A stretch of DNA of 56,960 nt from a virus, in UHGV virus genome UHGV-1359774; one strand, 5' to 3'. The notes below the pieces were generated by a model, which searched no databases, had not been told where the DNA came from, and saw only the letters and a list, made by a program, of their open reading frames with translations. Position numbers and translations under genes: made by a program. This document shows positions 1 to 56,960 of the stretch, piece after piece; within the stretch, counting starts at the first letter, position 1, and each line of letters starts with the position of its first letter.

Positions 1-320
1 ACCTGCACGATGCCAACCTGTGCGGTGCCGACCTGCACGGTGCCAACCTGTGCGGTGCCAACCTGTGCGGTGCCAACCTGCACGATGCCGACCTGTGCGA
101 TGCCGACCTGCACGGTGCCAACCTGCACGATGCCGACCTGTGCGATGCCGACCTGCACGGTGCCAACCTGCACGATGCCGACCTGTGCGATGCCGACCTG
201 CACGATGCCAACCTGTGCGGTGCCGACCTGCACGGTGCCAACCTGTGCGGTGCCAACCTGTGCGGTGCCGACCTGCACGATGCCAACCTGTGCGGTGCCG
301 ACCTGTGCGGTGCCAACCTG
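1..320. repeat. 15-nt periodic coding repeat (variants of ACCTGCACGATGCCA / ACCTGTGCGGTGCCG), about 21 units
   Basis: Direct reading; the same repeat appears at 56770-56960. Confidence 0.85.
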
Positions 321-527
321 GACTTTTCTTGCTGGCCGCTTTGGTGCGGCAGCAAAAACGTCAAAGCCGATGATCGGCTTATTGCGCAGCTTATCTTCCA
401 CGTCACAAGGTTGGATATTTCTTGCTGTTCTGGTGGCGTCCGCGAAGCTGTGGAACATATCCGGGCAATGGCCGTAAGCGACCTTTTTTGCGAATACCGC
501 AGTGATGTCTCAAAAATTGAAGAGTAG
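3..527 (+). CDS. Pentapeptide-repeat protein, C-terminal part (no start in window; in-phase continuation of the CDS beginning at 56693 if the molecule is circular)
   Basis: Frame 3 reads ...[19 protein letters not shown]... A(D/N)LxG units, then a non-repeat C-terminus ending at TAG 525-527. The ORF track shows only the two out-of-frame translations of the repeat. Confidence 0.55.
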   Translation: MHDANLCGADLHGANLCGANLCGANLHDADLCDADLHGANLHDADLCDADLHGANLHDADLCDADLHDANLCGADLHGANLCGANLCGADLHDANLCGADLCGANLDFSCWPLWCGSKNVKADDRLIAQLIFHVTRLDISCCSGGVREAVEHIRAMAVSDLFCEYRSDVSKIEE

Positions 528-537
528 GAGATATGGG

Positions 538-813
538 ATGAAAATCACCCTTCACTTGCCGATGTTCCTTCCCGGCGGCATCGCATACGACTTCACCACC
601 CCCGCAGAACTGCGGGATTTTTTGTCTCGGCTGACGACGCCTGAGGGATACGCGGACGACAGCCCGTCCACTGTGACTCTGAGCGCTGACGCGGCTTATA
701 CGCTGGCCGCCCTCGCAGTACGTGGGGAAAGCCTGCCGCGTACCGATGAAGAGCGCCACACGACGGAGAACCATAATCCAACCCAGGCCGCACTGGCCGT
801 TGCCAACACATAG
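538..813 (+). CDS. hypothetical protein
   Basis: ORF with AGGAGA RBS upstream of the ATG at 538. Confidence 0.3.
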   Translation: MKITLHLPMFLPGGIAYDFTTPAELRDFLSRLTTPEGYADDSPSTVTLSADAAYTLAALAVRGESLPRTDEERHTTENHNPTQAALAVANT

Positions 814-822
814 GAGGCTGCC

Positions 823-1161
823 ATGCCCATACGCGACACATTGCTGGCTAGACTGGCCGAAGCAGAAGAACGCATTCGGCAGCTTGAGAGCGATAACCGC
901 AAGCTGCGGCGTATGCTGCTGGCCCATGAGCAGGATTTGGAATCTCTGGAGCCCGGCCACTATGTCGTCACAAGCGACGGATGGAATGGCCCCTATCACA
1001 ACCAGAAGCAGGCTCTTGAACTGGGCAAGGACTTTGCCCAGGAAGATTTCAGCTTCACGGTTGAGATTGTGGCCCGGCATGAGGCCCAGGAGCAGCCTGA
1101 CGACAATGCCGGGCTGTATGCGCCCTGGACCATGAACCCGCCCGCGCGCGTGGCCGCGTGA
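823..1161 (+). CDS. hypothetical protein with N-terminal coiled coil
   Basis: GGAGG RBS 7 nt upstream; heptad-like N-terminus (LARLAEAEERIRQLESDNRKLRR). Confidence 0.45.
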   Translation: MPIRDTLLARLAEAEERIRQLESDNRKLRRMLLAHEQDLESLEPGHYVVTSDGWNGPYHNQKQALELGKDFAQEDFSFTVEIVARHEAQEQPDDNAGLYAPWTMNPPARVAA

Positions 1162-1400
1162 TGTGGGCCGAAGTATCACCCCGCCGCAACTGGCGGGGCT
1201 GGATCAGGGCCGTCTTCATCGTCTTGGTGTGGGCGGCCCTCAACTTTGTGGAGGATGTGGCATGGCCGTAATCACCTATTTTAACTCCGGCCGCCGTCGC
1301 GTGGTCGGCGTGCTGCCCATGCCTGATGGGGCGCGCAGGACTTTTCAGGGAACCAGTGTGGCGCAGGTGTTGCGTCTATGGAATGAAGCGAGGTCGCGGC

Positions 1401-1640
1401 ATGCGTTACGCTGTTTACGATAGGACGGACAGGCTGACGACACTTGCAAAAAACGCGGCATACATGCGCGAACGCTACCGCGCCTTGCGCAGCGCTGGGA
1501 TCTGTGTTCGCTGTAAAAATGCTGAGGCAATTCCCGGCATGTCCCTCTGCCGCGATTGCCGCCTCTGGAGCAATCAGCGACGCAGCGGCGCGGCAACGGC
1601 CCCGAGAAGCCCCTACAAGGATGGGCGAAGGAGGCAATGA
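1401..1640 (+). CDS. hypothetical zinc-ribbon protein (CxxC...CxxC)
   Basis: GAGGT RBS; motif CVRCKN...CRDC. Confidence 0.3.
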   Translation: MRYAVYDRTDRLTTLAKNAAYMRERYRALRSAGICVRCKNAEAIPGMSLCRDCRLWSNQRRSGAATAPRSPYKDGRRRQ

Positions 1641-1777
1641 TATGTGTATCCACAGAGGCGAGTGCCCGCATGCGGACATGACGTGCTCCACAGTCACATT
1701 TTGCCCGCTTGCGGATGATGAGGTTTATGTAGGCCCCGTGCAGGGGCCGTTTTTGTTCCAGCATGGAGAAAATAACT

Positions 1778-2662
1778 ATGACACAGTCAGCGGAACAGCT
1801 TTCGGAGCAGGCCAGCCGTTCTGCCAAGCCATTGAGCAATCAAGAGTTTGAGCAGGCTTTCGGCTTCAATCCGGCCCCTTTCTCATTGGAAAGCGTAGTA
1901 AGCAGCAAGGGCTTCCCACCGCAAAAGGTTGTGATCTACGGCGTGCCTGGCGTGGGCAAAACAACATTTGCCGCCACATGGCCCAAGCCCATACTGCTGC
2001 GCACGGAAGACGGCGCTTCGGCCTTGGATGTGCCGACCTTCCCCATGGTGGCCCGCAGTATTTCTGACCTGCGCGACGCATGCAACGCCCTGCTCCGAGG
2101 GAAACATGACTTCAAAACTTTGGTTCTTGATTCCCTGGATTGGACGGAGCCCATTGTCTGGCGCGAGGTTTGTCAGGAAGGACAAAAGAAAAACATCGAA
2201 GATTTCGGATATGGCAAGGGTTATGTCAAGGTAGACGACAAATGGCAGGCCATACAGGCGGGGTTTGAAAAGTTGCGCGACAAATGTGACATGCATATTG
2301 TCTGCATTGCACATGCTGTTCCAACTGTATTTGACCCACCCGACGCCGATCCTTACCAAAAGTACAACGTCAAACTGCACAAGCGTGCCTCTGCCATCTG
2401 GACGGAATGGGCAGAGATGCTGCTTTTTGTGAACTACAAGGCCAAGATTGTCACTGCCGAGGGAAGCTCCAAAGGAAAGGCCTTTGGTAAGGGCGAACGC
2501 GTCATCTACACGCAGGAGCGACCGGCCTACCAAGCCAAAAGTCGCTGGCCCCTGCCGGAAGAAATTTTTATCGGCCATGATTCCACATGGGCCGCGTTCC
2601 ATGAAGCGCTGAACGAAGCAAGCGAAGGGAAATACAACTATGAACATGATCGATCTGAATGA
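1778..2662 (+). CDS. P-loop ATPase, phage Sak4/RecA-like or AAA family
   Basis: Walker A GVPGVGKTT; GGAGAAA RBS before the second ATG; position in the early operon. Confidence 0.6.
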   Translation: MTQSAEQLSEQASRSAKPLSNQEFEQAFGFNPAPFSLESVVSSKGFPPQKVVIYGVPGVGKTTFAATWPKPILLRTEDGASALDVPTFPMVARSISDLRDACNALLRGKHDFKTLVLDSLDWTEPIVWREVCQEGQKKNIEDFGYGKGYVKVDDKWQAIQAGFEKLRDKCDMHIVCIAHAVPTVFDPPDADPYQKYNVKLHKRASAIWTEWAEMLLFVNYKAKIVTAEGSSKGKAFGKGERVIYTQERPAYQAKSRWPLPEEIFIGHDSTWAAFHEALNEASEGKYNYEHDRSE

Positions 2663-3323
2663 CGAACAGGAACAACGAGAACGCAACTACGGCCCCGTGC
2701 CTTGCGGCAGCAAGGTACTTGTGCGCCTTGAAGTGCAAAAGCCTAAATATGCATCCCGCGATGATGAGATGGTAGCCATGACCAAGAGCGGTTTGCTCCA
2801 GCTTCAATGCAAAATTGAAGTCTGCGCCGGAAGCTACGAAGGGTGCTGGTGGTACGAAAACATTACGTTACCATCCCGTATCCAGACCATCAGGCTGGAC
2901 GAAAATCTCCAGACGGCTTGCCGCATAGGCGGCTCCATGCTCAGGGCAATCATTGAATCCGTGCGCAGCATTGATCCAAAGGCTAGTGATCAAAAAGCCA
3001 CGCGCGCACGCCAGATCAATTCCTGGCTGGACTTTGACGGCCTTGAATTCCCCGTGCGTTTGGGCATCGACAAGCGCCCCTATGAAGGAAAGGACGGCAA
3101 AACGTACTGGAATAATCGTCTGGGAAGCGTCATCCCCTGCACGGCCAAGGAATACGCCGACATCATGGCTGGGGGTGAGATTATTACCGATGGCCCTGTA
3201 TCCGGTGAAGAATCCTATAAAAACGGGCGACAACCGTCCTATGGACAAAATGGCGTCCAGGTCCGGGAGTCCCTGCCGTATGACGGTACACCGCCGCCTG
3301 ATGATGATCTTGTGCCGTTCTAA
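2640..3323 (+). CDS. phage early protein, possible ssDNA-binding partner of the ATPase (DUF669-like, tentative)
   Basis: Translationally coupled to the ATPase gene; RBS present; no motif recognised with certainty. Confidence 0.4.
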   Translation: MNMIDLNDEQEQRERNYGPVPCGSKVLVRLEVQKPKYASRDDEMVAMTKSGLLQLQCKIEVCAGSYEGCWWYENITLPSRIQTIRLDENLQTACRIGGSMLRAIIESVRSIDPKASDQKATRARQINSWLDFDGLEFPVRLGIDKRPYEGKDGKTYWNNRLGSVIPCTAKEYADIMAGGEIITDGPVSGEESYKNGRQPSYGQNGVQVRESLPYDGTPPPDDDLVPF

Positions 3324-3379
3324 CATCCCCTCCTGCCACCTCAGCCCGCGCCCGCCCGGCGAAAGGCGGGCAATACAAA

Positions 3380-3811
3380 ATGGCAGACCGCACGCCCAAG
3401 GCCGCGTCTATTTTGCTCAGAAAAGAGGGCAAAACGCGGTCAATTTTTTTGTTCAATTTTGAGCGTTTTTCCGGGCAAAGCGAAGATGCCGGAACCTTCC
3501 GCGTCAAGATAGACGGCTGCTGGCACTGCCCGGACGGCAAGTACACGGCCATTGGCCCGCACGCCGTAGCTGAGCTCGTGCGGAGCTGGCTGACAGACAA
3601 CAATCCAGCGCCGCGCCCCGAAGGGCTCGACAAGCCCGTGCGCGTCTTCGCCCATTGGGAGCCTGATGAGGAGGATGATCCCGGTTGCGGGAGGGCATGG
3701 ACAAAAACGCCGCCGCATCTGGGCGCAGACGGGCGGTGGTGGATATGGGTAGACGGCCCGCGCCTAGTGCGCTGCGAAGACGTGCGCGTGCTGGGGCGTG
3801 GAGAGTTGTAG
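3380..3811 (+). CDS. hypothetical protein
   Basis: ORF in the co-directional early operon. Confidence 0.35.
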   Translation: MADRTPKAASILLRKEGKTRSIFLFNFERFSGQSEDAGTFRVKIDGCWHCPDGKYTAIGPHAVAELVRSWLTDNNPAPRPEGLDKPVRVFAHWEPDEEDDPGCGRAWTKTPPHLGADGRWWIWVDGPRLVRCEDVRVLGRGEL

Positions 3812-4098
3812 TGATTTGCTCCCGTGGCCGTGGAGACTCCGGCGAGGCTCTAGCCGGGGAAAAGTGCAACGGCGGGGCGATGCCTTCACCGTCCTCATGT
3901 CAATCCCTGAGCAGCCATGCCGGGCGGCGTTGTAGTCCGGCTTAATTCAACTCACGGCAGGCGCATCGCGGGCGAGCCGCGACGAAATGAACAGATAGAG
4001 TCCACGGCTAAGCCTGTTCTAGCGCGCGTAGTTATGCTTACACGACGTGGTGCCGTGCAAATCGGCAGCCTGCCATTAAAATAACATAGGGAGCAACC

Positions 4099-4881
4099 AT
4101 GCGCGGAGATATCCGTCAATGCGGCCTGCCAGGGTACGAGCTTGGCGACTACATCCGCGAGGCAATGGATTTTCTGCGCGAGCACGAACCGCCAGAAGGC
4201 TATTTTGTGGGATTCAGCGGCGGCAAGGACAGCATCACGTCCTTGGAACTGTGCCGCATGGCTGGGGTTAAGCATCAGGCATATTATAGTTGTACTCGCA
4301 TTGATCCGCCGGAAATGTACCGATTCATCCGGCAGCATTACCCCAGCGTGACATGGCTGTATCCAAGCATGACCATGTGGCAGGGCATAGAGGCCAAGTT
4401 TCCCCCGCTCATCACACGCCGTTGGTGCTGCGATGTCCTCAAAAAAGACCCAGCGAAAAGTCATTCTTTGAAAAACAGTATCATGGGCATCAGGGCAGAA
4501 GAAAGTACCAATCGAGCCAGTAAACCTCGCATAGCAACTTTTTACGGGAAGACTACATACAAACCGATTTTTAGCTGGGAGGAATGGGCCGTGTGGGAGT
4601 TTATCGAAGCGTTCAGCCTACCGTATCCGTCACTTTACGATGATGGTTTTGGACGTATCGGCTGTGTGGTGTGCCCGTACTTGCTGGGCGCGGGCGAAGC
4701 AAAAGCAATTCGTCGCGCCAGGTCAATGCAACGCTGGCCCGGAATCTGGAAGACTTTTGAGCACGCGGTAAAGCGCTGGTGGAGAGAGAAAAAAAACGGA
4801 GGCCTGGACGCGACAAAAACAAGTCGCATCAGTGAAAACGCCGACGACTACTGGCGGGCGTATCTCAATGGGTTCGAGTGA
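4099..4881 (+). CDS. phosphoadenosine-phosphosulfate reductase family PP-loop protein
   Basis: PP-loop motif FSGGKDS near the N-terminus; AGGGAG RBS. Confidence 0.6.
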   Translation: MRGDIRQCGLPGYELGDYIREAMDFLREHEPPEGYFVGFSGGKDSITSLELCRMAGVKHQAYYSCTRIDPPEMYRFIRQHYPSVTWLYPSMTMWQGIEAKFPPLITRRWCCDVLKKDPAKSHSLKNSIMGIRAEESTNRASKPRIATFYGKTTYKPIFSWEEWAVWEFIEAFSLPYPSLYDDGFGRIGCVVCPYLLGAGEAKAIRRARSMQRWPGIWKTFEHAVKRWWREKKNGGLDATKTSRISENADDYWRAYLNGFE

Positions 4882-4995
4882 GCCTCCCCTCTGACCTGCC
4901 GGGAACTTCCCGGCAGCGATTGGGCGGAGGACCGCTAACTGCGGACGGCTACAGCAGAGTCCAATCAACCTCAACCCGGCAAAAAAGTAGGGCAC

Positions 4996-5268
4996 ATGGA
5001 TATACCGACAAAGGCCAAACAGGGAGAGCCTTGCACTCGTTGCGGTCAGTGCTGCGCCCATGAAGTGTGCGGCGTTATGCTGGCAGTCAATCCCGATGCA
5101 AAGCCTCCCTGCCCCCAACTTGGATACAACCGGGAGCGCAACGAATTTGCATGTAGGGTTGTCCAGCTTGAGCAATTCATCGAACCGCGAGGCAACTGGC
5201 CAATAACTGCGGCCTTGGGTATCGGGGAAGGATGTGACTCGGTTGATAACGCTATGGAGGTTTCATGA
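4996..5268 (+). CDS. small Cys-cluster protein (CxxCxxCC, putative metal/Fe-S binding)
   Basis: Motif CTRCGQCCAHEVCG. Confidence 0.35.
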   Translation: MDIPTKAKQGEPCTRCGQCCAHEVCGVMLAVNPDAKPPCPQLGYNRERNEFACRVVQLEQFIEPRGNWPITAALGIGEGCDSVDNAMEVS

Positions 5269-6194
5269 CCACTAAAATCGAATGGGCCGACGCCACCATC
5301 AATCCCGTTGTCGGATGCACTAAATGCAGCGATGGATGCCGCTCATGCTATGCAGAGAGGTTCGCGGCTCGGATGGTGAGGCATCCGAATCCGAAGATCA
5401 GCGGCAAGTACGCAGACGTGGTGGACGAGCATGGAAAATGGACCGGGAAGACCAATATCGCTGACCACATGGATTTTTCCAAGCTCTATGGCATGCGTAA
5501 GTCAAAGCGCATTTTCGTGGGCAGCATGACTGACCTTTTCCACGCCAGTGTAAGCATTGAGACTCTGCGCGACATATTCAGCAGCATGTCGCTGTGCTCA
5601 CAGCATACATTCATGTTGCTGACCAAGCGTCCGGAACGCATGGCGGACTTTCTCCGTGAGTATTTTTCCACCCCGCTGCCGAATCTGTGGCTTGGCGTGA
5701 CGGTCTGTAACCAGGCCGAGGCCGACGCCAAAATTCCCGTTCTGCTCCAGACTCCGGCGGCTGTCCGGTTTGTGAGCGTGGAGCCATGCTTGGGGCCGGT
5801 GGATTTACGTGGAAAGCTTTGCCACTGGACGTGCCCTGACGGTTCCGGGAGTTGGTTTTCTCCGGTGCCGGGAAAAGTCCATCATCGTTTGCTCGACTGG
5901 GTCATTTGCGGCGGCGAAACCGGCCCCGGCGCGCGGCCCATGCATCCTGATTGGGTGCGTGGCCTGCGAGACCAGTGCCAGGCGGCGGCCACCCCGTTTT
6001 TCTTCAAGGGCTGGGGGGAGTTGGTAACAGAAAACCAGAGCCCGGAAGATATTGTGTTACCGGGTCATTCCACGATTCCTCATGGGTGGAAGGGCCGGAA
6101 ATATGAAGATTCTGTGTACCGTGTCGGCAAGCGCCGCGCTGGCCGTCTGCTCGACGGGCGGGAGTGGAATGAGGTGCCGGAGGTGAAAGCATGA
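5265..6194 (+). CDS. phage Gp37/Gp68 family protein
   Basis: N-terminal signature TKIEWADATINPVVGCTKCSDGCRSCYAE typical of that family; GGAGG RBS. Confidence 0.65.
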   Translation: MTTKIEWADATINPVVGCTKCSDGCRSCYAERFAARMVRHPNPKISGKYADVVDEHGKWTGKTNIADHMDFSKLYGMRKSKRIFVGSMTDLFHASVSIETLRDIFSSMSLCSQHTFMLLTKRPERMADFLREYFSTPLPNLWLGVTVCNQAEADAKIPVLLQTPAAVRFVSVEPCLGPVDLRGKLCHWTCPDGSGSWFSPVPGKVHHRLLDWVICGGETGPGARPMHPDWVRGLRDQCQAAATPFFFKGWGELVTENQSPEDIVLPGHSTIPHGWKGRKYEDSVYRVGKRRAGRLLDGREWNEVPEVKA

Positions 6195-6472
6195 GCGATG
6201 TAGCCCATCAATTCAGTCTGCCGGGCCTCTCCATTCTTGACGCAAGTGACGCTCCTCCCGGCTATCTCGCTGTTCTCAAAACTGACGCTTGCCCTAAGGA
6301 CAGTAACGAAAATTGTTGTCGCTTCTGCGACTGGCGACCTGAATGCCAGAAAGGGAGCCATGCGGCGCGTTGCATGCCATATCCTGCGGTGCTCCAGGAC
6401 GGGAGCCTGTGGGAGCGGAAGGACGGTTGTAGCGTCGTTTTCAAAAAAATGGAGGCCGAAAATGACCGCTGA
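6191..6472 (+). CDS. hypothetical Cys-rich small protein
   Basis: ATGA overlap with the upstream stop; multiple Cys (CCRFCDWRPECQ). Confidence 0.3.
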   Translation: MSDVAHQFSLPGLSILDASDAPPGYLAVLKTDACPKDSNENCCRFCDWRPECQKGSHAARCMPYPAVLQDGSLWERKDGCSVVFKKMEAENDR

Positions 6473-6776
6473 CGAATGGCTGGCCGACCTGGAGGACAAG
6501 GCTCAAGAGGCAGAGCAAGGGGAATGGAAAGCTATAACCAAAGAGTTCTTCGGTGACGTCAGCAGTGAAGTGGAAGTAAGCAGCGGGACTGTCGCTTATG
6601 ATTTGAATCCCGACGACGCGGCATTTATCGCCGCAGCCAATCCCGCCACCGTCCTGCGGCTCCTGGGCATGATACGCTTTTTAGCCTTTTCTGCTGCCCG
6701 TAGCCGAGGGCTGTTCGATGACCCCGCATATTGGATTGATACCGCCTATGTCGCAACGGAGAAACTACATGGCTAA
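6459..6776 (+). CDS. hypothetical protein
   Basis: GGAGG RBS before the ATG at 6459. Confidence 0.35.
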   Translation, partial: KMTADEWLADLEDKAQEAEQGEWKAITKEFFGDVSSEVEVSSGTVAYDLNPDDAAFIAAANPATVLRLLGMIRFLAFSAARSRGLFDDPAYWIDTAYVATEKLHG

Positions 6777-6984
6777 ACAACACGGCTTATCCATCAAGGA
6801 GCAGGCTATTTTATTGTGGGCGTTGTGCGTAGACGGCGACACCCCTAACAGCTGTCCCTGCAATTTTATACAGGACGTTGAAACGTGCCCTTTTGAAGAG
6901 GATTGTGAAGAGGTGAAAGACGGGGCGTGGCTCCCCTTCCTCGAAAAACGCGTACCCCCAGAGGATCAAGGTGGTGGAGCATGA
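6769..6984 (+). CDS. hypothetical protein
   Basis: GGAGAAA RBS. Confidence 0.3.
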   Translation: MAKQHGLSIKEQAILLWALCVDGDTPNSCPCNFIQDVETCPFEEDCEEVKDGAWLPFLEKRVPPEDQGGGA

Positions 6985-7520
6985 AAGAGCGCCCGATACT
7001 CTTCAACGGCGACATGGTCAGAGCGATCCTGGCCGGGCAGAAGACGCAGACGCGGCGAATTCCCTCCAAAACACAACAACACGCATTATTTTGCCCCTAC
7101 GGTCATCCCGGTGACCGTCTGTGGGTACGGGAGCGGTGGGCTACGGATATGTCTTTTGACGATCTTCCGCCACGGATGCTCCCGCCTCGTGGTATGCCGA
7201 TCTACTATCACGCCACAGCACAATGTATGGACTACAAATGGCGGCCATCCATCCACATGCCCCGCTGGGCCTCGCGCATCACCTTGGAGATCACCGATGT
7301 CCATGTGGAACGGGTGCAGGATATCCATGAAGAGGATGCTATTGCAGAAGGGATCGATCCTCGAAAACTTTCATATCTCTCGGGAGAAAGGGCTGTGACC
7401 AAATTTTACGTTCTGTGGAATTCCATCTACGCCGCAGACGGCCTTGGCTGGGACGTAAACCCGTGGGTCTGGGTGGTCACTTTTAAGCGTATGGAGAATC
7501 AGAAATGCCCGAAGAACTGA
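6981..7520 (+). CDS. ASCH/PUA-like domain protein (tentative)
   Basis: N-terminal ILFNGDMVRAILAGQKTQTRR resembles ASCH-type beta-barrel starts; AGGTGG RBS. Confidence 0.35.
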   Translation: MKERPILFNGDMVRAILAGQKTQTRRIPSKTQQHALFCPYGHPGDRLWVRERWATDMSFDDLPPRMLPPRGMPIYYHATAQCMDYKWRPSIHMPRWASRITLEITDVHVERVQDIHEEDAIAEGIDPRKLSYLSGERAVTKFYVLWNSIYAADGLGWDVNPWVWVVTFKRMENQKCPKN

Positions 7521-7966
7521 CGTCCAAAAATAAAATAGAAATATTGTCTGTACTTTATGGACCGTATGGGTGCACTTCGCTGTTTGTCTCCGGGATCACC
7601 TCCTCTATCGGGAAAAAAGAATGCGAAGCAATGCAAAAGGCTATCGCTAGTGCGTTGGATGGAGATATGGAGCCGCGCCCGAACCTCCGCGCCCCGCGCA
7701 TCACTCCCAACGACGCCGACTGCAAGGGCTGCCCCGAGCGTCGGCCGGCCCTGGTGTGGACGAAGGAGCCGCCCACGGTGCCGGGGTGGTATTGGTACCA
7801 TCGTTACTTTTCTAATCCTCGTATTGTACAGCTTATGTACCGGGGGCTTGATACCGATCGACTGGTAGTGTCCTTCGCAGGCAATGAAGAAAATGAATGG
7901 GTAGAAGACATGGTGGGCTGGTGGGCCGGGCCCATCCCCATGCCGGAGGAGAATGGAAATGAATAA
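7505..7966 (+). CDS. hypothetical protein
   Basis: GGAGAA RBS. Confidence 0.35.
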   Translation: MPEELTSKNKIEILSVLYGPYGCTSLFVSGITSSIGKKECEAMQKAIASALDGDMEPRPNLRAPRITPNDADCKGCPERRPALVWTKEPPTVPGWYWYHRYFSNPRIVQLMYRGLDTDRLVVSFAGNEENEWVEDMVGWWAGPIPMPEENGNE

Positions 7967-9088: not shown

Positions 9089-9126
9089 CCTATTCCTGGC
9101 ACATTTGGCGCATGATGGAGGACATC

Positions 9127-10221: not shown

Positions 10222-10237
10222 GTGCCTGATTTTACTG

Positions 10238-10300: not shown

Positions 10301-10331
10301 CAGATTATAATAACACAATATTTTTATATTT

Positions 10332-10478: not shown

Positions 10479-10480
10479 AT

Positions 10481-47851: not shown

Positions 47852-47920
47852 GCTTCGCTCCATTTGGGAGAAAGCATAGCAGAGCAGGCATCAAGCCATG
47901 TATGGGAATATCAGGTAAAA

Positions 47921-48485: not shown

Positions 48486-48995
48486 CTAGCTCAACCTCCT
48501 GATCTGTACCACGGCCTTGCCGCTCCGCACATTTTCGCCCCACTCCATGGACAGCCGCCGCACCTGACTGTCATCGAGCCAGACCCCGGCGTGCGTCAGG
48601 GCGTCAAGGAGGGCCTTGCCACCAAAGTTGTCGAGGTCACGCCGCCGGTTGTCCGGCGCATGGAGGGTTACAGCTACGGCGACGCCAGAGCCTATTCTAA
48701 GAGCCTTTCGTTCCGCCATGACCGTTTGTGTCACCTGCTGTCGAAAATCCCTTCCCGCTACGGATATAAGAGTTCTTGTGGCATTCCCGATGCGTACTGA
48801 CCGCCAGTAATGATTTACAGACGGTGGGAACGGCAGTTCTAGGACCAAGGGTGGATAAGCATCCTTGTCCGGGTTCGCCGGACACGATACGCAGCACAGG
48901 TCGCCGTCGATGGCACGGGGGCAGGTGAGGCCGGGGCAAGCGCTCACAGGTCGTTCCCCGCCGCGGCGTATTGGCCACTCGTTTTGGCGGCCCAC
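48486..48995 (-). CDS. rusA: RusA-family Holliday junction resolvase (true start probably internal, near LVLELPFPPSVNHYW)
   Basis: PPSVNHYW ... D..N..K..LD.L...G...DD pattern. Confidence 0.65.
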   Translation of the reverse strand: MGRQNEWPIRRGGERPVSACPGLTCPRAIDGDLCCVSCPANPDKDAYPPLVLELPFPPSVNHYWRSVRIGNATRTLISVAGRDFRQQVTQTVMAERKALRIGSGVAVAVTLHAPDNRRRDLDNFGGKALLDALTHAGVWLDDSQVRRLSMEWGENVRSGKAVVQIRRLS

Positions 48996-50347
48996 TCATC
49001 GGCGTGGGTATCCTCGACAAAATCCGAAAATGGCTTGTCAAAGAGCAGATTCGCCGCGCCCGTGCCCGAACTACGCCCCTTGGCGACGATGGCCCGCACC
49101 GGCATACGGGCAAGCCCCTGATTCGCCTTTTTTGCGTGCAGAAACATGACGATATCCGCGTCTTGCTCAATTGCCCCGGACTCGCGCAAATCAGACAGCC
49201 GCGGGGCGCGATCCGATTCCTCTACCTGCCGATTGAGCTGGGAGAGCAGCAACACCGGGCAGTCGCAATCCAGGGCGAGTTGCTTCATGGCGCGAGACAT
49301 TTCGGCCACCTCACGCTCCCGGCTGTTTTGCTTCGTATCGGGGTTGAGCAGTTGCAGGTAGTCCACCACCACGAGCCCAACGCCCTTGATGGACTTCGCC
49401 AACCGGCGAACCTCACGCGGTGTCATGGGCGCTATGGATTTTTCCACCACGCGCATGGGTAGGCCTGCGATCCTGGCCGAGGCCGCCTTGATGGCAGGCA
49501 GCACGTTGGGGGCCCGGTCCACACGCTGCCGAAAACACGAGAGGTCAATGCGCCCTTCCCTAGCCGTAAGACGGTTGCCGATGGTCAGGTCTTTGACTTC
49601 GCGGCTGATAAAAAGCGTGTCCACACCGTTGCGGGCCGTTTCCAGCGCCATGCATCCGGCCAAGGCCGTCTTGCCCATGCCAGGTCTGGCCGCGAGAATG
49701 ACAAGCTCGCCGGGGACGATGCCCCCACGCAATACCCGGTTCAACGATGGCCAGGGTGTCGGCAGTGGTTTTCCGGCTTCGCCGTTTTCAGCCGCGGCTA
49801 CAACACGCCCCATGAGTTCGGAAAGATCCATGGGCAGCACGTCCGCGCCGCCGTCCAGTTCAGCCGCCAGGGCTGTTAGTCCGCTGGCGATTTCCACCGG
49901 GTCGTTACCGTAGCGCTGGCAGTCACCGACGAGGCCCATGAGCATGGCTTCAGCCCGACGCTTGAGGCCTTCAGCGCGTACTTGTTGCGCGGCCAGCATC
50001 ACAGCGTCTTCTCTCCGGCCAAAAATGCTGAGCGTATAATCAGCCACCGTGGCCGCAGTGATCTCGTCAGGCCATGGTTCAGCCTTGGGATCATTGGCGG
50101 CCTGCCCTGCCCGGATGGCAGACCAGACGGCCTGGAGCGTCATCGGCGCACCGGATTCAGCCACAGCAGCCATGGCCCGGTAGATGGCTCGTGGAACCCT
50201 GGCCGTGAGCATGTCCAGGGGGCACACAGCCAGGAGATCACGGGCGCTGACCGTTTTGGCGCAGGCTGCCGTAAGGGCCATGTTCACGAATTCGTGCTCC
50301 CGGTCTTCACGCATTTCGACCACGTTGAATTTTTCGGCCATGTTCAC
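48944..50347 (-). CDS. dnaB: replicative DNA helicase DnaB-like
   Basis: Walker A ARPGMGKTALAG, LVVVDYLQLL, N-terminal DnaB helical domain; GGAGG RBS. Confidence 0.8.
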   Translation of the reverse strand: MNMAEKFNVVEMREDREHEFVNMALTAACAKTVSARDLLAVCPLDMLTARVPRAIYRAMAAVAESGAPMTLQAVWSAIRAGQAANDPKAEPWPDEITAATVADYTLSIFGRREDAVMLAAQQVRAEGLKRRAEAMLMGLVGDCQRYGNDPVEIASGLTALAAELDGGADVLPMDLSELMGRVVAAAENGEAGKPLPTPWPSLNRVLRGGIVPGELVILAARPGMGKTALAGCMALETARNGVDTLFISREVKDLTIGNRLTAREGRIDLSCFRQRVDRAPNVLPAIKAASARIAGLPMRVVEKSIAPMTPREVRRLAKSIKGVGLVVVDYLQLLNPDTKQNSREREVAEMSRAMKQLALDCDCPVLLLSQLNRQVEESDRAPRLSDLRESGAIEQDADIVMFLHAKKANQGLARMPVRAIVAKGRSSGTGAANLLFDKPFSDFVEDTHADEWAAKTSGQYAAAGNDL

Positions 50348-51255
50348 GCCTCCGGCCTGTTGTCGTATTTGCCTTCAATCACGCCCACAAAGCCTCCAGG
50401 GCTCATAAGCTTGTCAAAATCCACCCGGTACACGCTTCCATCCCGGAACGTCCGCTTGCCGGTAAGAAAGTCAGACATGGCCGCCTTGTTAAAAAGCCGC
50501 TGGAAGTAGGCCAGTCTTTCAGCGGCGGAATCAGGCCTTTTGAGTTCTCGGAGTCGTTTCCCCGCGTCTCCCCATCGAGCTTTCACGGCCCCCTTGCGCT
50601 TGGTACTAAGCAGCGCAACGCGGGGGTGCTCGGGGAAGGCTGCGTGATACATGTCCCGGATTTGCTCATAGGGGCATGGAGGTATGTCTTTGCGTTCAGG
50701 ACATTGTGCCTTGAGCGAAGGTGACTCTGCTGCCAAGGCTGTGCTGTATTCCTGCCCGTCAAGGCCGGTTGCGGGGGCGTCGTCGCCCACCGGCGGCGAC
50801 AAGCACTCGAACGAAGTGAGAGTGCTATCTTGTATTTTTCTTTCTTTCTTACCTTCTTCTTCCTTATAGGAAGGTTGTCCATCGGTTAACCGCTGGTCGT
50901 CCATTGGTTGACCATCGGTTAACCACCGACTTGATTCTGATTGCTGATAAGTGTTCCAGTTTACTATTGTTATTATGCAGAATCGGTTAGCCACATTCTC
51001 GATCGTGATGAAGTTGTCAGCTTGCAGGTGCTTCAACATGCGGACAACCGTTGATCGTGGGGTATTCAGTGCTTCCGCCATGTTGCTTAACACAGCCCCG
51101 AACTGCCCAGGCTTGAGGGTACGCCCCTGATAATGAGACTCTTTCCAGCAGGCGCGCATGAGCAGGTTGACGATAAGTCCCTGATAGACGAGGCCACGTG
51201 CCCAGGAAGATGAATCTTGGGCTTTCCGCCAAATTTTGATATATCCTCTATCCAT
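50344..51255 (-). CDS. replication initiation protein (lambda O-like, with internal iterons)
   Basis: N-terminal HTH-like region; iterons within the coding sequence; coupled to dnaB. Confidence 0.5.
   Translation of the reverse strand: MDRGYIKIWRKAQDSSSWARGLVYQGLIVNLLMRACWKESHYQGRTLKPGQFGAVLSNMAEALNTPRSTVVRMLKHLQADNFITIENVANRFCIITIVNWNTYQQSESSRWLTDGQPMDDQRLTDGQPSYKEEEGKKERKIQDSTLTSFECLSPPVGDDAPATGLDGQEYSTALAAESPSLKAQCPERKDIPPCPYEQIRDMYHAAFPEHPRVALLSTKRKGAVKARWGDAGKRLRELKRPDSAAERLAYFQRLFNKAAMSDFLTGKRTFRDGSVYRVDFDKLMSPGGFVGVIEGKYDNRPEA
50877..50924. repeat. three imperfect 14-15 bp direct repeats GTCCAT(C/T)GGTT(A/G)ACC (candidate ori iterons)
   Basis: Direct reading. Confidence 0.45.
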
Positions 51256-51283
51256 GAAATGCCCCGATATGAATGGAGGTGCT

Positions 51284-51460
51284 ATGAGCAATTTTGAAAT
51301 CCCAGCCAGACAATCTATAAAAATTGATGTCGAAGAGGGCGGGGAATGGATTGTGTTTAGGCAGGATGACGCGTCTGTGGCGATTCACAAAAAGGACCTG
51401 CCGAATGTCATAGATTACTTGTGTGACATTGCTGGTGTAGGAAGCAGTAAAACGGCTTGA
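51284..51460 (+). CDS. hypothetical small protein
   Basis: GGAGGTG RBS. Confidence 0.3.
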   Translation: MSNFEIPARQSIKIDVEEGGEWIVFRQDDASVAIHKKDLPNVIDYLCDIAGVGSSKTA

Positions 51461-51565
51461 CTTTTTTTCCTGATCCGCACGCGGTTCGGATGCAAATACT
51501 CCGTACTTGCCCCCGTGTACTTTCGTAAGGAGGCAATCTGGCTTTTGGCGCACCCGCGTGAATAG

Positions 51566-51665
51566 TTGACAAACATCAGTGTTATGGTACATACTGTTCT
51601 CGTTGATTAACGATCTTTTGTTTCCCGCATTAAGCCCGGTCGCCTGCCGGGCTTTTCCTTTTTCC
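51566..51665 (+). ncRNA. candidate oop-like small RNA: TTGACA -35 (51566-71), weak -10, intrinsic terminator AAGCCCGG-loop-CCGGGCTT-TTCCTTTTT at 51632-51665
   Basis: Promoter-like and terminator elements ~65 nt apart on the strand opposite the early-right operon, between the CII-side genes and the O-like gene. Confidence 0.3.
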
Positions 51666-52064
51666 CTAGGCATACACAAAATCTTCATCCACGCGCTGCG
51701 CTGTTTCACTTCCACCTCTGATCCTGGACCAGCACGCTGAGCAGCGATAATTGCCGTGGCTTGGCTTTCCGCAGTCGTGGCAACGGCGTACTTCCTGTTT
51801 CAGGGCAGCCTTTTCGTCAAAGCCGTATTCACTCTCTGCCCTGCGCTCCCACACAGATTTTTGCGGGGCGAATGCTTTCTGACGAGATTTAGCCGTCTTT
51901 TGCTCTCTCCGGTTTTTCAACACCTGGCGGCAGCCCTTGCAGTGTTTGGGGTTAAGCGCCAGCCCGGCGGTGAACTCTCGGCCGCACCGCTCGCACTTCT
52001 TTTTCACGCACCAGACGCCGTTTTTAGCTCTAAAAGCGCCTTGCGCTGGCTTCTCGTTCGCCAT
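51666..52064 (-). CDS. zinc-ribbon protein (four CxxC pairs)
   Basis: GGGGAAAGAG RBS before MANEKP. Confidence 0.4.
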   Translation of the reverse strand: MANEKPAQGAFRAKNGVWCVKKKCERCGREFTAGLALNPKHCKGCRQVLKNRREQKTAKSRQKAFAPQKSVWERRAESEYGFDEKAALKQEVRRCHDCGKPSHGNYRCSACWSRIRGGSETAQRVDEDFVYA

Positions 52065-52245
52065 CACTCTTTCCCCGTTGCCTGCTTCAGCAGGTCTTCC
52101 CAAATCTCTTGCTCATAGGTCCGCACATAGGCCGCTATGTCTTCCCGCCGCTGAGGATCGCGTATCTCCACCTTTCCGCCCGGCAACGCCGTGAGGTGAA
52201 GGTCTGGGTAATAGGCGAAGAGGAAGGCGGCGCGGTTCATGGGGC

Positions 52246-52719
52246 CTACGACTCTCCATTCTCGAGCACGTATTCCCGCCGATATTGCTCCACGGTCTCG
52301 TCGATCTCTGACTGGAGCGCACGCGCCAACATGGCGATCACCGCAGGCTTATTCCGCTTGTCACGAAGGGCTTGTTGGAATTCATCCAGGGCATGCAGAT
52401 CATCCAGAGCTTCGTCACGCACGTCGGCATGATCCGGGATCGAGCACAGCGGCACAGCCTTGAAACCGCACTTGGAATTGAGCCAGATCACCGGCGCGGG
52501 GGCACTTTTGAACGGCATATGGATGCAGGCGCGGATCAGCGGAAGGAGCGTATCAACCCCCAGCTTGCCGCCTTCATCGGTCGCATCAAGTTCGCGATAC
52601 AGTGTGGAGTAGCCCTTGCCGATTTCAGCGGCGATAGCCTTGAGGGGCCTACCGCTATCATCCACCATTCTGGCGCAGACTTCAGAAAGCGGAATGGTGT
52701 TAAAAAAGTCGCTATTCAC
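52246..52719 (-). CDS. CII-like / HTH early regulator (tentative)
   Basis: GTG start with AAGAGGAA RBS; HTH-like LKAIAAEIGKGYSTLYREL; position downstream of cro. Confidence 0.3.
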   Translation of the reverse strand: MNSDFFNTIPLSEVCARMVDDSGRPLKAIAAEIGKGYSTLYRELDATDEGGKLGVDTLLPLIRACIHMPFKSAPAPVIWLNSKCGFKAVPLCSIPDHADVRDEALDDLHALDEFQQALRDKRNKPAVIAMLARALQSEIDETVEQYRREYVLENGES

Positions 52720-52913
52720 TGTCCGTTCCTCTTTGTGCTACAGCATGGGATTATGGACCCATGCAAAATTTCGTTCCCGCCCTGCTCCGCCTTACAGCCC
52801 GGCCCCGCTACTGGCGTATTGCCGTCATCCTGCCGGGGCGCATCCTTTGGCGCACCTACAGCCGCGTGGAGTACCCGACGCCGGACGAAGCAGTGCTGCG
52901 GTGTCTGGCGGGG

Positions 52914-53078
52914 CTACTTTTTCCCGATGTTTTGATGGCTGCTTTGAAACCCGGAGTTCATACGCCGCCATCCTCGGATGAAGAAAAAAGTGGAGATGAT
53001 AAACACCACGACGCCAATAAGACTCAGGGCGCAATAACCCATGAGCACCCACGTAGCGACTTCAAAAAATTGATCCAT
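52914..53078 (-). CDS. 54-aa hydrophobic membrane peptide
   Basis: GAGGAG RBS. Confidence 0.3.
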   Translation of the reverse strand: MDQFFEVATWVLMGYCALSLIGVVVFIISTFFFIRGWRRMNSGFQSSHQNIGKK

Positions 53079-53251
53079 AAATTACTCCTCGCGCCAGAGG
53101 CTGCCTGTAGTTTTGATGATGCCGCAGCCGAGAGTCAGAGCAAGTTCAGCCGCAGTGAGGGACAAGTCCATGATTCAGCTCTTCATTATGATCCAAGCAA
53201 TCGCTACCATCCAGCCATTGTGGATACCCAGATAATGACTCCTTCCATGAC

Positions 53252-53371
53252 CTACTCCTTTCCGGCGGCATACAGCCACAGGCAGACCAGCGCGCTAAAG
53301 AAAGCCACCACGGACACGCCGAACCACAGCGCTGGCTCCCAGCCGTAGAAGGTGACGAAGCTACGCAGCAT
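53252..53371 (-). CDS. 39-aa hydrophobic membrane peptide
   Basis: GAGGT RBS. Confidence 0.3.
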   Translation of the reverse strand: MLRSFVTFYGWEPALWFGVSVVAFFSALVCLWLYAAGKE

Positions 53372-53374
53372 GGC

Positions 53375-53560
53375 TTACCTCATGCACTCAGCGCTAAACA
53401 GGCAAAGAATCCCCGCGATGAACAAGACCAGCGCGATACTCAGCCATTTCTTGCGGGCCACGCACAACCACGCAGGCAATTTCTGGGAGGCCCACAAAAC
53501 AAAATATCCGAGGATAGTCAGAGCGAAGGTGGCAATGTAGAGGATATCAACGCTATCCAT
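53375..53560 (-). CDS. 61-aa two-TM membrane protein overlapping the cro stop
   Basis: G-rich RBS. Confidence 0.35.
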   Translation of the reverse strand: MDSVDILYIATFALTILGYFVLWASQKLPAWLCVARKKWLSIALVLFIAGILCLFSAECMR

Positions 53561-53783
53561 CCCCGCCCCCTTCCCCCGGTTCGGGTTCGGGCGGCGTGGT
53601 GGGGGTGGCTATAACTCCTCGGTCAATTAGGAATTCGGCCAATCGCTCCCCAGTACTCTTTTTCTTCTGTCTCAGAAGATATCTGTTGAGTGATATGACA
53701 TTGACTCCAATCTCAGCGGCAAGCCGAGTTTGGCTCCACTTCGATTCCCGGAGGAAAATCTTTGTTTGCTCGCTAATGTTCAT
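53553..53783 (-). CDS. cro: Cro-like XRE-family HTH regulator
   Basis: HTH SQTRLAAEIGVNVISLNRYL; divergent from the cI-like gene. Confidence 0.6.
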   Translation of the reverse strand: MNISEQTKIFLRESKWSQTRLAAEIGVNVISLNRYLLRQKKKSTGERLAEFLIDRGVIATPTTPPEPEPGEGGGDG

Positions 53784-53892
53784 ATCAAAATTTTAGTCTA
53801 TTCACCACTCAAAAACAAGCCAAAAAAGTAAATCGGCGATTTGCCAGATTTTAGCGCATACGCTAAGAATCTAGAAAAAAGGTAGAAATATT
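53784..53892. promoter_or_regulatory. immunity switch region: operator palindrome TTAGCGcataCGCTAA (53851-66) inside a TTGCCA-N17-TAAGAA promoter toward cI; candidate PR TTGGCT-N17-TAGACT toward cro; second palindrome AAATCGgCGATTT (53829-41)
   Basis: Direct reading. Confidence 0.5.
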
Positions 53893-54525
53893 ATGGCTGC
53901 TGAAAAGCTCAGAAAATATTTCAACGCCATTATTGGCGAGGGAAAGCGTTTTTCTACCCAAACCGAAATGGCTAGATACCTAGGGCTTGGGCAAACCACC
54001 GCCACGAAGCTCTACGGCTTTTTAGATGGTGCGGATACTCGTTTTTCAGCCGTTGTAGACTGGCTTGAAAAACTGGGAGGCCAGATCGTATTGCCCGATG
54101 AGGAATTGGAACAATTTGAAATGATCCCCAAGGTTCGCGCTGTCGCTGGGGCTGGTGAAAGCCTAGTTACGTCCGGAAAGGTAACAGGGCAGTATGCTTT
54201 TCGTGAGAGTTTTCTAAAACGCGAACATATCCACCCTGAAAAATGCGTCCTGATGTGCGTCGCGGGCGATTCGATGGAACCCTTAATTCGGGAGGGTGAC
54301 ACTATTTTAGTGGATGAATCCGAAAAGGGTAAAGAGTTGCGTGATGGGCATATCTTTGTGGTGGGGTTGAGTGATGCCCTGATGGTCAAGCGCCTTGCCA
54401 AAATCCCCAGTGGTTGGAGGCTTTGCTCTGAAAACAAAGAACGTCCGGATATTGATGTACAGGGGGATGACTTCAATACGTTCCGTGTTTATGGCCGTGT
54501 CCGCTGGTTTGGGCGAGTGGTTTAG
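53893..54525 (+). CDS. cI: CI-like repressor with C-terminal S24 (LexA-type) peptidase domain
   Basis: N-terminal HTH; C-terminal GDSMEP ... TILVD ... K block. Confidence 0.75.
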   Translation: MAAEKLRKYFNAIIGEGKRFSTQTEMARYLGLGQTTATKLYGFLDGADTRFSAVVDWLEKLGGQIVLPDEELEQFEMIPKVRAVAGAGESLVTSGKVTGQYAFRESFLKREHIHPEKCVLMCVAGDSMEPLIREGDTILVDESEKGKELRDGHIFVVGLSDALMVKRLAKIPSGWRLCSENKERPDIDVQGDDFNTFRVYGRVRWFGRVV

Positions 54526-54647
54526 AGAACGTAAAGAAGAAATAAGTTATCTCAATTGGTGCATCAGAAGAGGCCGGGGCACTCCCACCTTATTGTTCCA
54601 GTGCGGTGATGGCTGACGCAACTGGCGCAAAAAGGAGGTGAGTCCTA

Positions 54648-54761
54648 TGGCTAAAACCAAGGAAGGGAAAAAGATTGTTCCCGTTAAGCCCTACGTCAGG
54701 AAAGCCCCTGGCGGTAGCAAGGTGTCGGTGAAGCGGCATCGGCGCTCAACGCCGAACTAAT
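54648..54761 (+). CDS. 37-aa highly basic peptide
   Basis: AAAGGAGGTG RBS; followed by a terminator. Confidence 0.25.
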
Positions 54762-54800
54762 CCTTAACCCAGCCCCGGCCTCTTCTAGTACGCCAACCAT

Positions 54801-54825
54801 GCCCTTCGCTCGAAGGGCTTTTTTG
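54801..54825 (+). terminator. intrinsic terminator GCCCTTCG-ctc-GAAGGGC-TTTTTTG
   Basis: Direct reading. Confidence 0.6.
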
Positions 54826-54908
54826 TGCCCTTTGAGCGGGCTACCAGCAGTAAATTTAATACCCTTATCTTATTGAATAATTAGCGTAAGTGCAAATATT
54901 TTTATCTA

Positions 54909-54964
54909 TTTTTTAGCTTAATTGCTAAAAATTTGTTGCAATATGATAGCGTATTCGCTATTCT
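54909..54964 (+). promoter_or_regulatory. PL-like early-left promoter TTGCAA-N17-TATTCT with two operator palindromes: TTAGCttaattGCTAA (54913-28) and ATAGCGtattCGCTAT (54946-61)
   Basis: Same half-site family as the operator next to cI. Confidence 0.45.
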
Positions 54965-55296
54965 AACTTTGCCAACGGGGGAAAGGCGGCGAACACGGGC
55001 CACGGCCCAGAAGCCGTTTGAACCTCGGAGGCTAAGGCCAACAAGTACCGGGTGCAGGCTACCTGCAAACGGGGCATGGCGGAAGGTGGATGCCTGATGA
55101 TGCCAGCCCGCAGTGGGAAAGGACACGAAGCACAGGGAAGGCCCGACAATTCCAACGGCATCGCCCGGCCGTCAAGAAGGGGCGCTCGAAAAACCACGGC
55201 GTGCTGCGCCGGAGTCTGTGAAGGACGAGAAAAACTTTAACTTCTTTTTGATTTTTCCTTGCCACCATTTTTATGGTGGCGAGATAAAAAGCAAAA

Positions 55297-55790
55297 TGGA
55301 GTTCGATATGAAAATAATCCCTCTTACAAAGGGCTTTAGTACAATCATTGACGATGAAGACTATGAATTGTTCTGTAGATTCAAATGGACAGCAAATGTG
55401 ACACGGCAAGATAAGGTATATGTAGTCCGTGGAACAAAAGAAAAAAAGAAGATATTTCTTCATCGTGAAATTTCAAAATGCCCTTCTGAATTGGTAGTTG
55501 ACCATATAAATGGTGACACTCTTGATAATAGAAGATCAAATTTGCGCTGCGTATCAAAGAGGATAAATACTCTAAATGCAAAAAATCTTTCAAGGAACAC
55601 ATCTGGGTATAGAGGAGTTTCTTTTTCCAAAGAAACAAAAAAGTGGGTTGCTAAACTAGAAGTTAGCTCTAATGGGCAAAGAAATACAATCTGTTTAGGA
55701 AGTTATAACTCTCCAGAACTCGCATTTGAAGCGTACAAAAAGAAATTTTCAGAACTATACGGGAATTTAGAAATGGTTTGGCTGAAATGA
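55297..55790 (+). CDS. HNH endonuclease with AP2 DNA-binding domain (homing-endonuclease-like), AT-rich
   Basis: VVDHINGDTLDNRRSNLRCVS HNH block; SGYRGVSFSKETKKWVAKL AP2 block. Confidence 0.6.
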
Positions 55791-55808
55791 CGACACACGG
55801 AGAAAATT

Positions 55809-56045
55809 ATGATTGAGCACAAAATACCACGGTTACGCATGGAGCGGGAAATCGCTCACACCCTTAAAAAGATGCAGGATTTTTTGTGTGGTTACGACCT
55901 ATGGAAGCGCAATCAGGAACGAAAACAAGCGGCTAGCTGCCTGAAAATGGCACGGGAATATAGAAATCATGCTCGCAAACTCAAAAAGTATCTTGATGCC
56001 GGGCTTATGATATCCGGCAATTATCGGTACATATTTGTTGATTAA
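55809..56045 (+). CDS. hypothetical small basic protein
   Basis: ORF in the early-left operon. Confidence 0.3.
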   Translation: MIEHKIPRLRMEREIAHTLKKMQDFLCGYDLWKRNQERKQAASCLKMAREYRNHARKLKKYLDAGLMISGNYRYIFVD

Positions 56046-56325
56046 CCCCTTACCATCTATAGAAAATGAGATGGATAAACGCAAACAATGCCTTGAAATA
56101 GAGATTAAATCCATTGATATGGCTATAGAATTAGGGCGGCTAATACGCCTGCAGCGCACATCAATAGGCTTATCACCTGAGAGATTAGCAGAACTCGCGT
56201 CCGTGCATGCTGGAGACATTAAAGCCGCTGAAGCTGCAAAATGCGTCCCCATCCTGACAATCATCAAAATTTTAGCAGCAGTAGGCCTGAAAATTTCTTT
56301 TTCTGAGCTGAGCATAAAACGCTAA
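56035..56325 (+). CDS. XRE-like HTH protein
   Basis: AIELGRLIRLQRTSIGLSPERLAELASV. Confidence 0.4.
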   Translation: MLINPLPSIENEMDKRKQCLEIEIKSIDMAIELGRLIRLQRTSIGLSPERLAELASVHAGDIKAAEAAKCVPILTIIKILAAVGLKISFSELSIKR

Positions 56326-56406
56326 GGCCTATGGCGAGTTCTGCGCTCGCCAATGAGCAGGGCCGGAGACATCGTGTCTCTGGCTTTTTCTTTTGTCCCC
56401 TTCTGA

Positions 56407-56619
56407 ATGAGGCTGGATATGCTGAAAGAGGTAAGCAAGGAAGACTTTTACAAGGTGATAGATACGCTCGACGTCAGCCCATATCCCCAAGGAAAATGGG
56501 ATGACCTGGGAGGATACAAAAGCATCTGGAGGTTACGGAACGGCGAACTTGTCGGCGTATCTGAGCCGAAAACTTACGGTTTTACTGAGAAAAAATATTT
56601 CCTCGTTCAGGATGACTGA
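56407..56619 (+). CDS. hypothetical protein
   Basis: ORF. Confidence 0.3.
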   Translation: MRLDMLKEVSKEDFYKVIDTLDVSPYPQGKWDDLGGYKSIWRLRNGELVGVSEPKTYGFTEKKYFLVQDD

Positions 56620-56692
56620 CACCCCGGCAGCCCATGCTGCCTCTTCCACACCCGCCGCCACATGAGTGGCGACGGGGAATGGAGGATTTACC

Positions 56693-56960
56693 ATGCGAGA
56701 GCTTACCAACAACGAGATACAGATTCTTCAACGGCACGCGAAATGGCTGGTATCTGGCGGGACTGATGGCGAAAGTGCCAACCTGTGCGGTGCCGACCTG
56801 CACGGTGCCAACCTGCACGATGCCAACCTGTGCGGTGCCGACCTGCACGGTGCCAACCTGTGCGGTGCCAACCTGTGCGGTGCCAACCTGCACGATGCCG
56901 ACCTGTGCGATGCCGACCTGCACGGTGCCAACCTGCACGATGCCGACCTGTGCGATGCCG
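56693..56960 (+). CDS. pentapeptide-repeat protein, N-terminal part (runs off the window end; continues in phase at position 3)
   Basis: GGAGGA RBS; [23 protein letters not shown] then A(D/N)LxG repeats. Confidence 0.65.
56770..56960. repeat. 15-nt periodic coding repeat, same family as at 1-320
   Basis: Direct reading. Confidence 0.85.

Follow-up and report, generated by a model that had tools for sequence, protein, structure and literature searches.

Tyrosine-integrase elements of the Islander class target tRNA genes (PMC4383910). The phage-type attachment site (attP) of such an element holds an exact 3' segment of the tRNA, integration regenerates the gene, int lies beside it, and a displaced fragment marks the far end. 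The spontaneously induced prophages of human-gut Desulfovibrio piger are about 23–60 kb in length with 59–65% GC; 13 of 18 are located in or next to tRNA genes, and they have little or no nucleotide similarity to known phages (PMC12724379). The subject of this analysis is UHGV virus genome UHGV-1359774, a 56,960-nucleotide stretch of viral DNA presented as one strand and referred to throughout as the window. An earlier note described it as a complete circular or circularly permuted temperate phage genome with a lambda-like organization and no host genes. We find that the window is very likely the complete genome of a temperate siphovirus of gut Desulfovibrionaceae in a non-integrated form, either as a circle, excised or replicating, or as circularly permuted DNA from virions. 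Coordinates are those of the window with the strand given as + or −, and public contigs and loci are designated by L numbers where they have to be distinguished.

The attP core is located at 10236–10283 (−) and is the exact 3' 48 nt of a tRNA-Lys(UUU) gene, from the anticodon stem to the CCA. It occurs once in the window with phage DNA on both sides, and the place of the tRNA 5' 28 nt is taken by AT-rich phage sequence. ARAGORN and Rfam found no complete tRNA in the window, and Rfam did not return a partial match there even at a permissive E-value. A degenerate pattern derived from the minus strand of 10239–10280 was run against the GTDB species genomes and returned 104 stretches, nearly all from Desulfovibrio, Mailhella, and other Desulfovibrionaceae. 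The exact 42-mer of the window was present in 63 copies among the fetched loci, mostly from Desulfovibrionaceae. The full host gene was called by ARAGORN as a tRNA-Lys with the anticodon TTT, and its identity to the window is exactly 48 nt, the 42-mer plus 3 nt on each side. The earlier note had placed the core at 10238–10300 as the 3' part of a tRNA-Lys gene and suggested searching hosts for a tRNA-Lys with a matching 3' segment. The tRNA-Lys origin and the matching host genes are both borne out, but the true limits are 10236–10283, and 10284–10300 belongs to the phage arm. Judged by this sequence identity, the host family is Desulfovibrionaceae and the bacterial attachment site (attB) is the tRNA-Lys(UUU) gene.

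The int gene (9127–10221, +) encodes a 364-amino acid tyrosine integrase (phrog_1, E = 7e-46; PF00589) and ends 14 nt from the core. Its open reading frame (ORF) opens at 9076, and a ribosome-binding site, GGAGG, precedes the ATG at 9127. The identical 364-amino acid protein is found in four public assemblies, the 381-amino acid version from the longer ORF has no exact record, and 9127 is probably the true start. From the other side, the genes for fibre assembly, fibre, and J (−) point towards the core, as the earlier note had stated for the tail-fibre genes. Directly upstream of int is a 100-amino acid ORF (8786–9088, +) that has no family match and is kept with int beside tRNA-Lys in loci L092 (62% amino acid identity) and L079; it is a candidate excisionase (Xis) or directionality factor. 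A terminator-like hairpin just 3' of the core (10199–10227, −) resembles the DNA that follows host tRNA-Lys genes, with about 80–86% similarity. This hairpin would terminate the regenerated tRNA after integration and probably also closes int. The motif ATGTGYCMA, which was picked after inspecting the region, occurs five times in the window, and four of the five copies are within 185 nt of the core, flanking it in one orientation. Two copies are on the int side (10169–10191, +), and two (10334–10351) are in the P arm, an AT-rich segment at 10284–10431 that is 81–88% identical to the corresponding arms in loci L107, L111, and L149. Their placement is only suggestive, and the copies are plausible candidates for arm-type Int-binding sites.

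Because the P arm, the core, the P' arm, and int lie in one piece, the window represents attP. A 51-mer of attP had no match in IMG/VR, which places the source contig outside that collection. By analogy with tRNA-targeting tyrosine integrases, Int would recombine the 48-nt core with the host tRNA-Lys(UUU). At attL, the first 28 nt of the tRNA gene would then come from the host, and the following 48 nt and the terminator beside int from the phage; at attR, the displaced host 3' copy would lie next to the tail-fibre end. The arrangement does not differ in principle from the Islander class (PMC4383910); the Desulfovibrionaceae tRNA-Lys(UUU) target and the 48-nt identity are particular to the group of the window.

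Integrated relatives carry junctions of both types. L079 (Desulfovibrio sp. Dsv1) and L092 are of the attL type, with a complete tRNA-Lys adjoining homologues of the integrase and of the 100-amino acid ORF. The integrase homologues are 73% (L079) and 66% (L092) identical at the nucleotide level, and that of L092 has 64% amino acid identity. Beyond the tRNA are host genes, namely a Gln/Glu-tRNA synthetase and XdhC in L079 and a dicarboxylate symporter in L092. L107, L111, and L149 are of the attR type, with a P-arm homologue, a partial tRNA, and then the usual downstream sequence of the host tRNA (e.g., CACGAAGCCCCGCAAA). ARAGORN called no tRNA at the partial copies in these three loci, and the ORFs of L149 had no significant Pfam match (one FlxA, E = 0.008, below the curated cut-off). 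As compared at the nucleotide level, the junctions of the relatives are those expected from recombination of a window-like attP with the host gene. L135 was also considered as a same-site relative and rejected; its integrase is homologous, but the element is integrated elsewhere with no tRNA nearby. In L092 (3025–6630), the integrase and candidate Xis homologues stand beside tRNA-Lys with a DnaG-type primase gene instead of phage structural genes, and L092 may be a different kind of mobile element that uses the same integration module. The window agrees with the features reported for the D. piger prophages (PMC12724379), although its GC content of 56% is slightly lower.

The two ends of the window are the halves of one pentapeptide-repeat gene. 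The 5' part of the coding sequence (56693–56960, +) starts with an ATG and encodes a 28-amino acid unique N terminus followed by a 15-nt repeat array that runs off the right end. The same repeat resumes in frame from position 3, and the 3' part (1–527, +) contains the array to about 326, a unique C-terminal domain, and the stop at 525–527. The protein matches Pfam Pentapeptide PF00805 (E = 1e-66). Intact orthologues are encoded by single ORFs of 174 amino acids in L133 and 109 amino acids in L127. The C-terminal domain matches in both, and the 28-amino acid N terminus is identical in L133 and differs at two residues in L127. In both relatives the gene is followed by the same 91- and 112-amino acid genes, which correspond to window 538–813 and 823–1161. 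These data place the two repeat segments at one locus and confirm that the gene runs across the end of the window in phase, as had been proposed.

The ends overlap rather than abut. Bases 1–150 are exactly 56811–56960, the sole exact terminal overlap in the window, and one copy is to be trimmed. To count as a direct terminal repeat here, an exact repeat shared by the two contig ends has to span 20 nt or more, and the one in the window spans 150 nt. The reading frame is kept under either join since 150 is 3 × 50. Collapsing the overlap gives a 214-amino acid protein and a 56,810-bp circle, and abutting the ends gives a 264-amino acid protein. The last 202 nt of L142 (ENA ERZ28575304 scaffold_6391, from another sample) are window 56776–56960 followed by 151–167, and the tenth base beyond the end differs from what abutted ends would give. 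The circle is 56,810 bp because L142 reads 56960 directly into 151–167. One BLAST alignment of L133 extends from window 56409 across the junction to 1265. The IMG/VR contig IMGVR_UViG_3300045988_174130 (L002/L010), which is 92–95% identical, runs continuously from the homologue of 48–53 kb through a divergent immunity segment to the homologue of 0.8–3.8 kb. We did not detect host DNA between the ends in the relatives that span the junction. L142, L133, and L002/L010 support the closed genome. The description of the window as a complete circle needs two amendments: the ends overlap by 150 nt, and the raw length is probably inflated by a 4,553-bp tandem duplication.

Public contigs match the window at 100% identity over 1127–10265 (L138), 7754–10283 (L141), 10229–11317 (L137), 11468–22368 (L148), and 24813–41312 (L126). 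At the right end, L144 matches 51419–56800 with one mismatch and L142 matches 51419–56960 at 99.7%. Megablast of both window halves against the GenBank phages gave the pentapeptide repeat as the sole match. Several observations weigh against the conclusion that the window is a whole, non-integrated genome. An attL/attR pair of this exact phage was not found, and a peptide-pattern search of IMG/VR and the GTDB species genomes returned no close relative of the integrase. All public contigs of the identical phage break off at the edges of the core, those that approach from int at 10265 (L138–L140, Logan) or 10283 (L141) and the one that approaches from the tail at 10229 (L137). We infer that the core also occurs in a host context in those samples, at a branch of the assembly graph, so these samples cannot separate attP plus attB from attL plus attR. 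The join of the P arm, core, and P' arm is seen in the assembly of the window alone. The terminal overlap lies inside a tandem array whose length varies among samples, and such arrays are known to produce false terminal repeats. Finally, the perfect internal duplication means that the assembly is not flawless. L137 and L141, which come from one sample, share an overlap of exactly 55 nt at the core, which hints that the identity with the true host site reaches 7 nt past the CCA.

The duplication consists of 28427–32979 (copy A) repeated 100% identically and head to tail at 32980–37532 (copy B), and there is no microhomology at the 32979|32980 joint. Copy A contains the tube gene, chaperones, unassigned ORFs, and a truncated tail-completion gene. 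The left flank of copy A (L001, L126) and the right flank of copy B are native. The truncation is N-terminal, and this second tail-completion gene arises from the duplication. The joint is seen in this window only. The 100%-identical contig L126 crosses both outer borders unbroken with a single copy, and one copy is present in all relatives, including L002 and L117–L125. The pieces 1–32979 and 32980–56960 are each repeat-free, and they have 4,553 nt in common at one end and 150 nt at the other, a pattern that would be expected of untrimmed joining. The duplication is probably the product of two overlapping pieces of a circle that were joined without trimming, which would make the unit genome 52,257 bp. 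The contig was opened within the pentapeptide gene, and the closed molecule is 56,810 bp, or 52,257 bp if the 4,553-bp repeat is an untrimmed overlap. The alternative is that the duplication is real and reflects a recent event in the tail-tube region of the sequenced phage population. The perfect head-to-tail arrangement in the given sequence fits a real duplication, a short-read assembler would output the joint only if it was given junction reads, and headful packaging tolerates duplications. However, the identical phage in L126 and every relative have a single copy, the event adds a truncated tail-completion gene, and the paired overlaps are those of untrimmed joining. A real duplication is the less probable of the two. 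Automatic completeness calls face two traps in this window, a terminal repeat within a tandem array and a perfect internal duplication that adds 8.7% to the length.

The number of repeat units in the pentapeptide gene is 3, 15, at least 16 (with three extra units at the start), and 24 across the related phages (window 56777–56960 plus 1–326; L127 9376–9705; L133 9166–9690; L142 5275–5604). The flanks of the variable arrays are about 89–100% identical, and the unique N- and C-terminal domains are kept. These observations could be combined with a genuine duplication in a single account. The pentapeptide gene would be a rapidly varying locus, perhaps a DNA-mimic counter-defence protein under length diversification, and the 4.55-kb tail-tube duplication would be genuine and tolerated by headful packaging. 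We regard this combination as doubtful. The arrays of P22-like Salmonella phages (ST104 orf19 and epsilon34 gp42) are 87–90% identical to that of the window at the nucleotide level, and the likeness is limited to the repeat.

A false terminal repeat would mean that the assembler broke twice in the array and that sequence is missing between the ends. The overlap does lie within a 15/45-nt tandem array whose unit number varies among samples, and the array matches both ends of a Salmonella phage record (S.Inf 5-2, GenBank OR850760.1; 1–213 and 40502–40687). The order of the unit variants is specific, however. Written as unit variants, the right end is ABCABAACDBCD plus GCCG, and the overlap spans the run ABAACDBCD. 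All ten units in the overlap carry variable positions, and we consider chance identity of ten consecutive variable units very unlikely. The orthologues are short single genes in which repeat units alone lie between the N- and C-terminal domains, the independent contig L142 bridges the end, and every expected module is present in the window, so at most some repeat units could be missing. A false repeat is highly improbable on these data. The occurrence of the array at both ends of the Salmonella record raises the prospect that the pentapeptide repeat may be a recurrent place where assemblies open or break.

The probability that the window derives from a bacterial chromosome, as all or part of an integrated prophage, is almost nil; relatives are commonly integrated in long host contigs, and the public contigs that break at the core indicate that lysogens probably exist, but the scanned ORFs of the window include no host housekeeping gene, the core is present once rather than twice and lies between int and the tail-fibre genes, and the window ends in the halves of one phage gene. 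The earlier note had excluded an integrated prophage, and these data agree. An episomal phage-plasmid is just as improbable, since its assembly as a circle is outweighed by the intact integrase with an exact tRNA-derived attP, by the integrated relatives with the same int and P arm, and by family scans of the window ORFs in which no partition or plasmid-replication gene was seen.

The whole, non-integrated genome contains a full set of modules, as the earlier note had claimed, with immunity, replication, recombination, lysis, packaging, head, and tail functions all found. Its layout resembles that of lambda. The immunity region (52246–54525, mixed strands) contains an S24 LexA/CI-type repressor (53893–54525, +), a divergent Cro-like helix-turn-helix gene (53553–53783, −), and a CII-like gene (52246–52719, −). 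The leftward early operon ends in int and encodes the pentapeptide protein, a Sak4-like single-strand annealing protein (1763–2662, +), a PAPS-reductase-like protein, an anti-repressor, and the candidate Xis. The rightward operon runs from the CII-like gene through the O-like initiator, the DnaB-like helicase, lysis, terminase, head, and tail genes to J, the fibre, and fibre assembly, and the two operons converge on attP. The initiator and helicase genes occupy 48944–51291 (−). The lysis genes (46739–47863, −) encode a lysozyme-like endolysin (47237–47863) and an Rz-like spanin. The packaging and head block (37134–45899, −) contains TerS (45333–45899, −), TerL (43966–45357, −), the portal, a MuF-like protein, the scaffold, the major head protein (39366–40385, −), Ad1, Hc1, and the tail-completion protein. 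TerL had no relative in the PDB by sequence. The combination of a MuF-like protein, a DUF4055 portal, and a PF03592 TerS hints at headful packaging. The neck and tail set consists of the adaptor, head closure, tail completion, and tube proteins and the chaperones. At the attP end are the central tail fibre J (12360–16529, −), the tail fibre (11120–12385, −), and the tail-fibre assembly protein (10481–11107, −; phrog_4912, PF16778); the fibre and J block (11120–16529) matches phrog_31 with E = 1e-90.

The lambda likeness put forward earlier holds for this layout, including the convergence of int and the tail end on attP, but it fails for the packaging and head genes, which are not of the lambda type. 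In the window these are a PF03592 TerS, a PF03237 TerL, a DUF4055 portal, and a MuF-like protein. Unlike lambda, the window has an attP that targets a tRNA gene and its own DnaB-like replicative helicase, and the block of tape-measure, M, L, and K genes is inverted and the late genes do not form one co-directional block. The phage is not lambdoid in the strict sense, which asks for a single co-directional late block and the capacity to recombine with phages of the lambda family; its packaging and head families differ, and it has no GenBank phage nucleotide similarity beyond the repeat. It is an ordinary, routine case of an already known kind. Its value is practical rather than conceptual, as a closed reference genome with a host assignment for a lineage found widely across public metagenome assemblies and lacking close relatives in the GenBank phage records that were searched. 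One protein of the phage is on record in 298 blocks of a public assembly collection. The corrections to the overlap, the core limits, the host family, and the duplication matter to those who use this sequence as a reference.

The tape-measure gene (22411–25422) and the lambda M/L/K-like minor tail protein genes form a block (22411–26719, +) opposite in strand to the rest of the late genes. It converges with the head and tube operon (26900–45899, −) and diverges from J in the segment at 10481–16791 (−). The convergent layout is found in 8 of 10 independent contigs compared, the other two ending before the block, and also in the IMG/VR relative L002 and in the BLAST comparison. A misassembled inversion was considered and is ruled out by the eight contigs, by L002, and by ENA contigs that pass through the 41.3-kb repeat arm. 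By this comparison of sequences, the opposite-strand tail block is natural and conserved in the relatives. A 49-nt inverted repeat (22321–22369 and 41283–41331) has an exact 31-nt core (22339–22369 and 41283–41313). Each arm is positioned just past a terminator-like hairpin, in the sense orientation, upstream of the tape-measure or the scaffold gene. The 31-nt repeat is a candidate late promoter and may be a copy that drives the inverted block. It was also considered as an inversion scar and rejected, since inverting the DNA enclosed by the arms would break the head module in two. Both L148 and L126, which are Logan contigs, terminate at the arms of the inverted repeat, which we attribute to the 31-nt length of the exact core.

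An accessory island at 16800–22300 (no strand assigned) contains genes for endonuclease I (17269–18009), a YecR-like lipoprotein (18380–18811), a low-GC 470-amino acid ORF (18884–20296, −; GC at third codon positions, GC3, 0.25), and a second anti-repressor (21113–22057). The GC content of 18000–21000 is 36–40% compared to 56% overall. The 470-amino acid ORF had no match in PHROG or PADLOC and only a weak VRR-NUC match, and PADLOC and Pfam returned nothing useful for the low-GC ORFs. An HNH-AP2 homing endonuclease gene (55113–55790, GC3 0.36) lies to the right of the repressor. In L143, which is 99.5% identical elsewhere, 797 nt at this locus are replaced by about 363 nt (L143 4012–4375), which suggests that the HNH-AP2 gene is a presence/absence polymorphism. 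In L122 (6924–8999), the MuF-like head protein is 691 amino acids compared to 371 in the window and has a weak match to an intein-splicing domain, which suggests an intein insertion in this gene.

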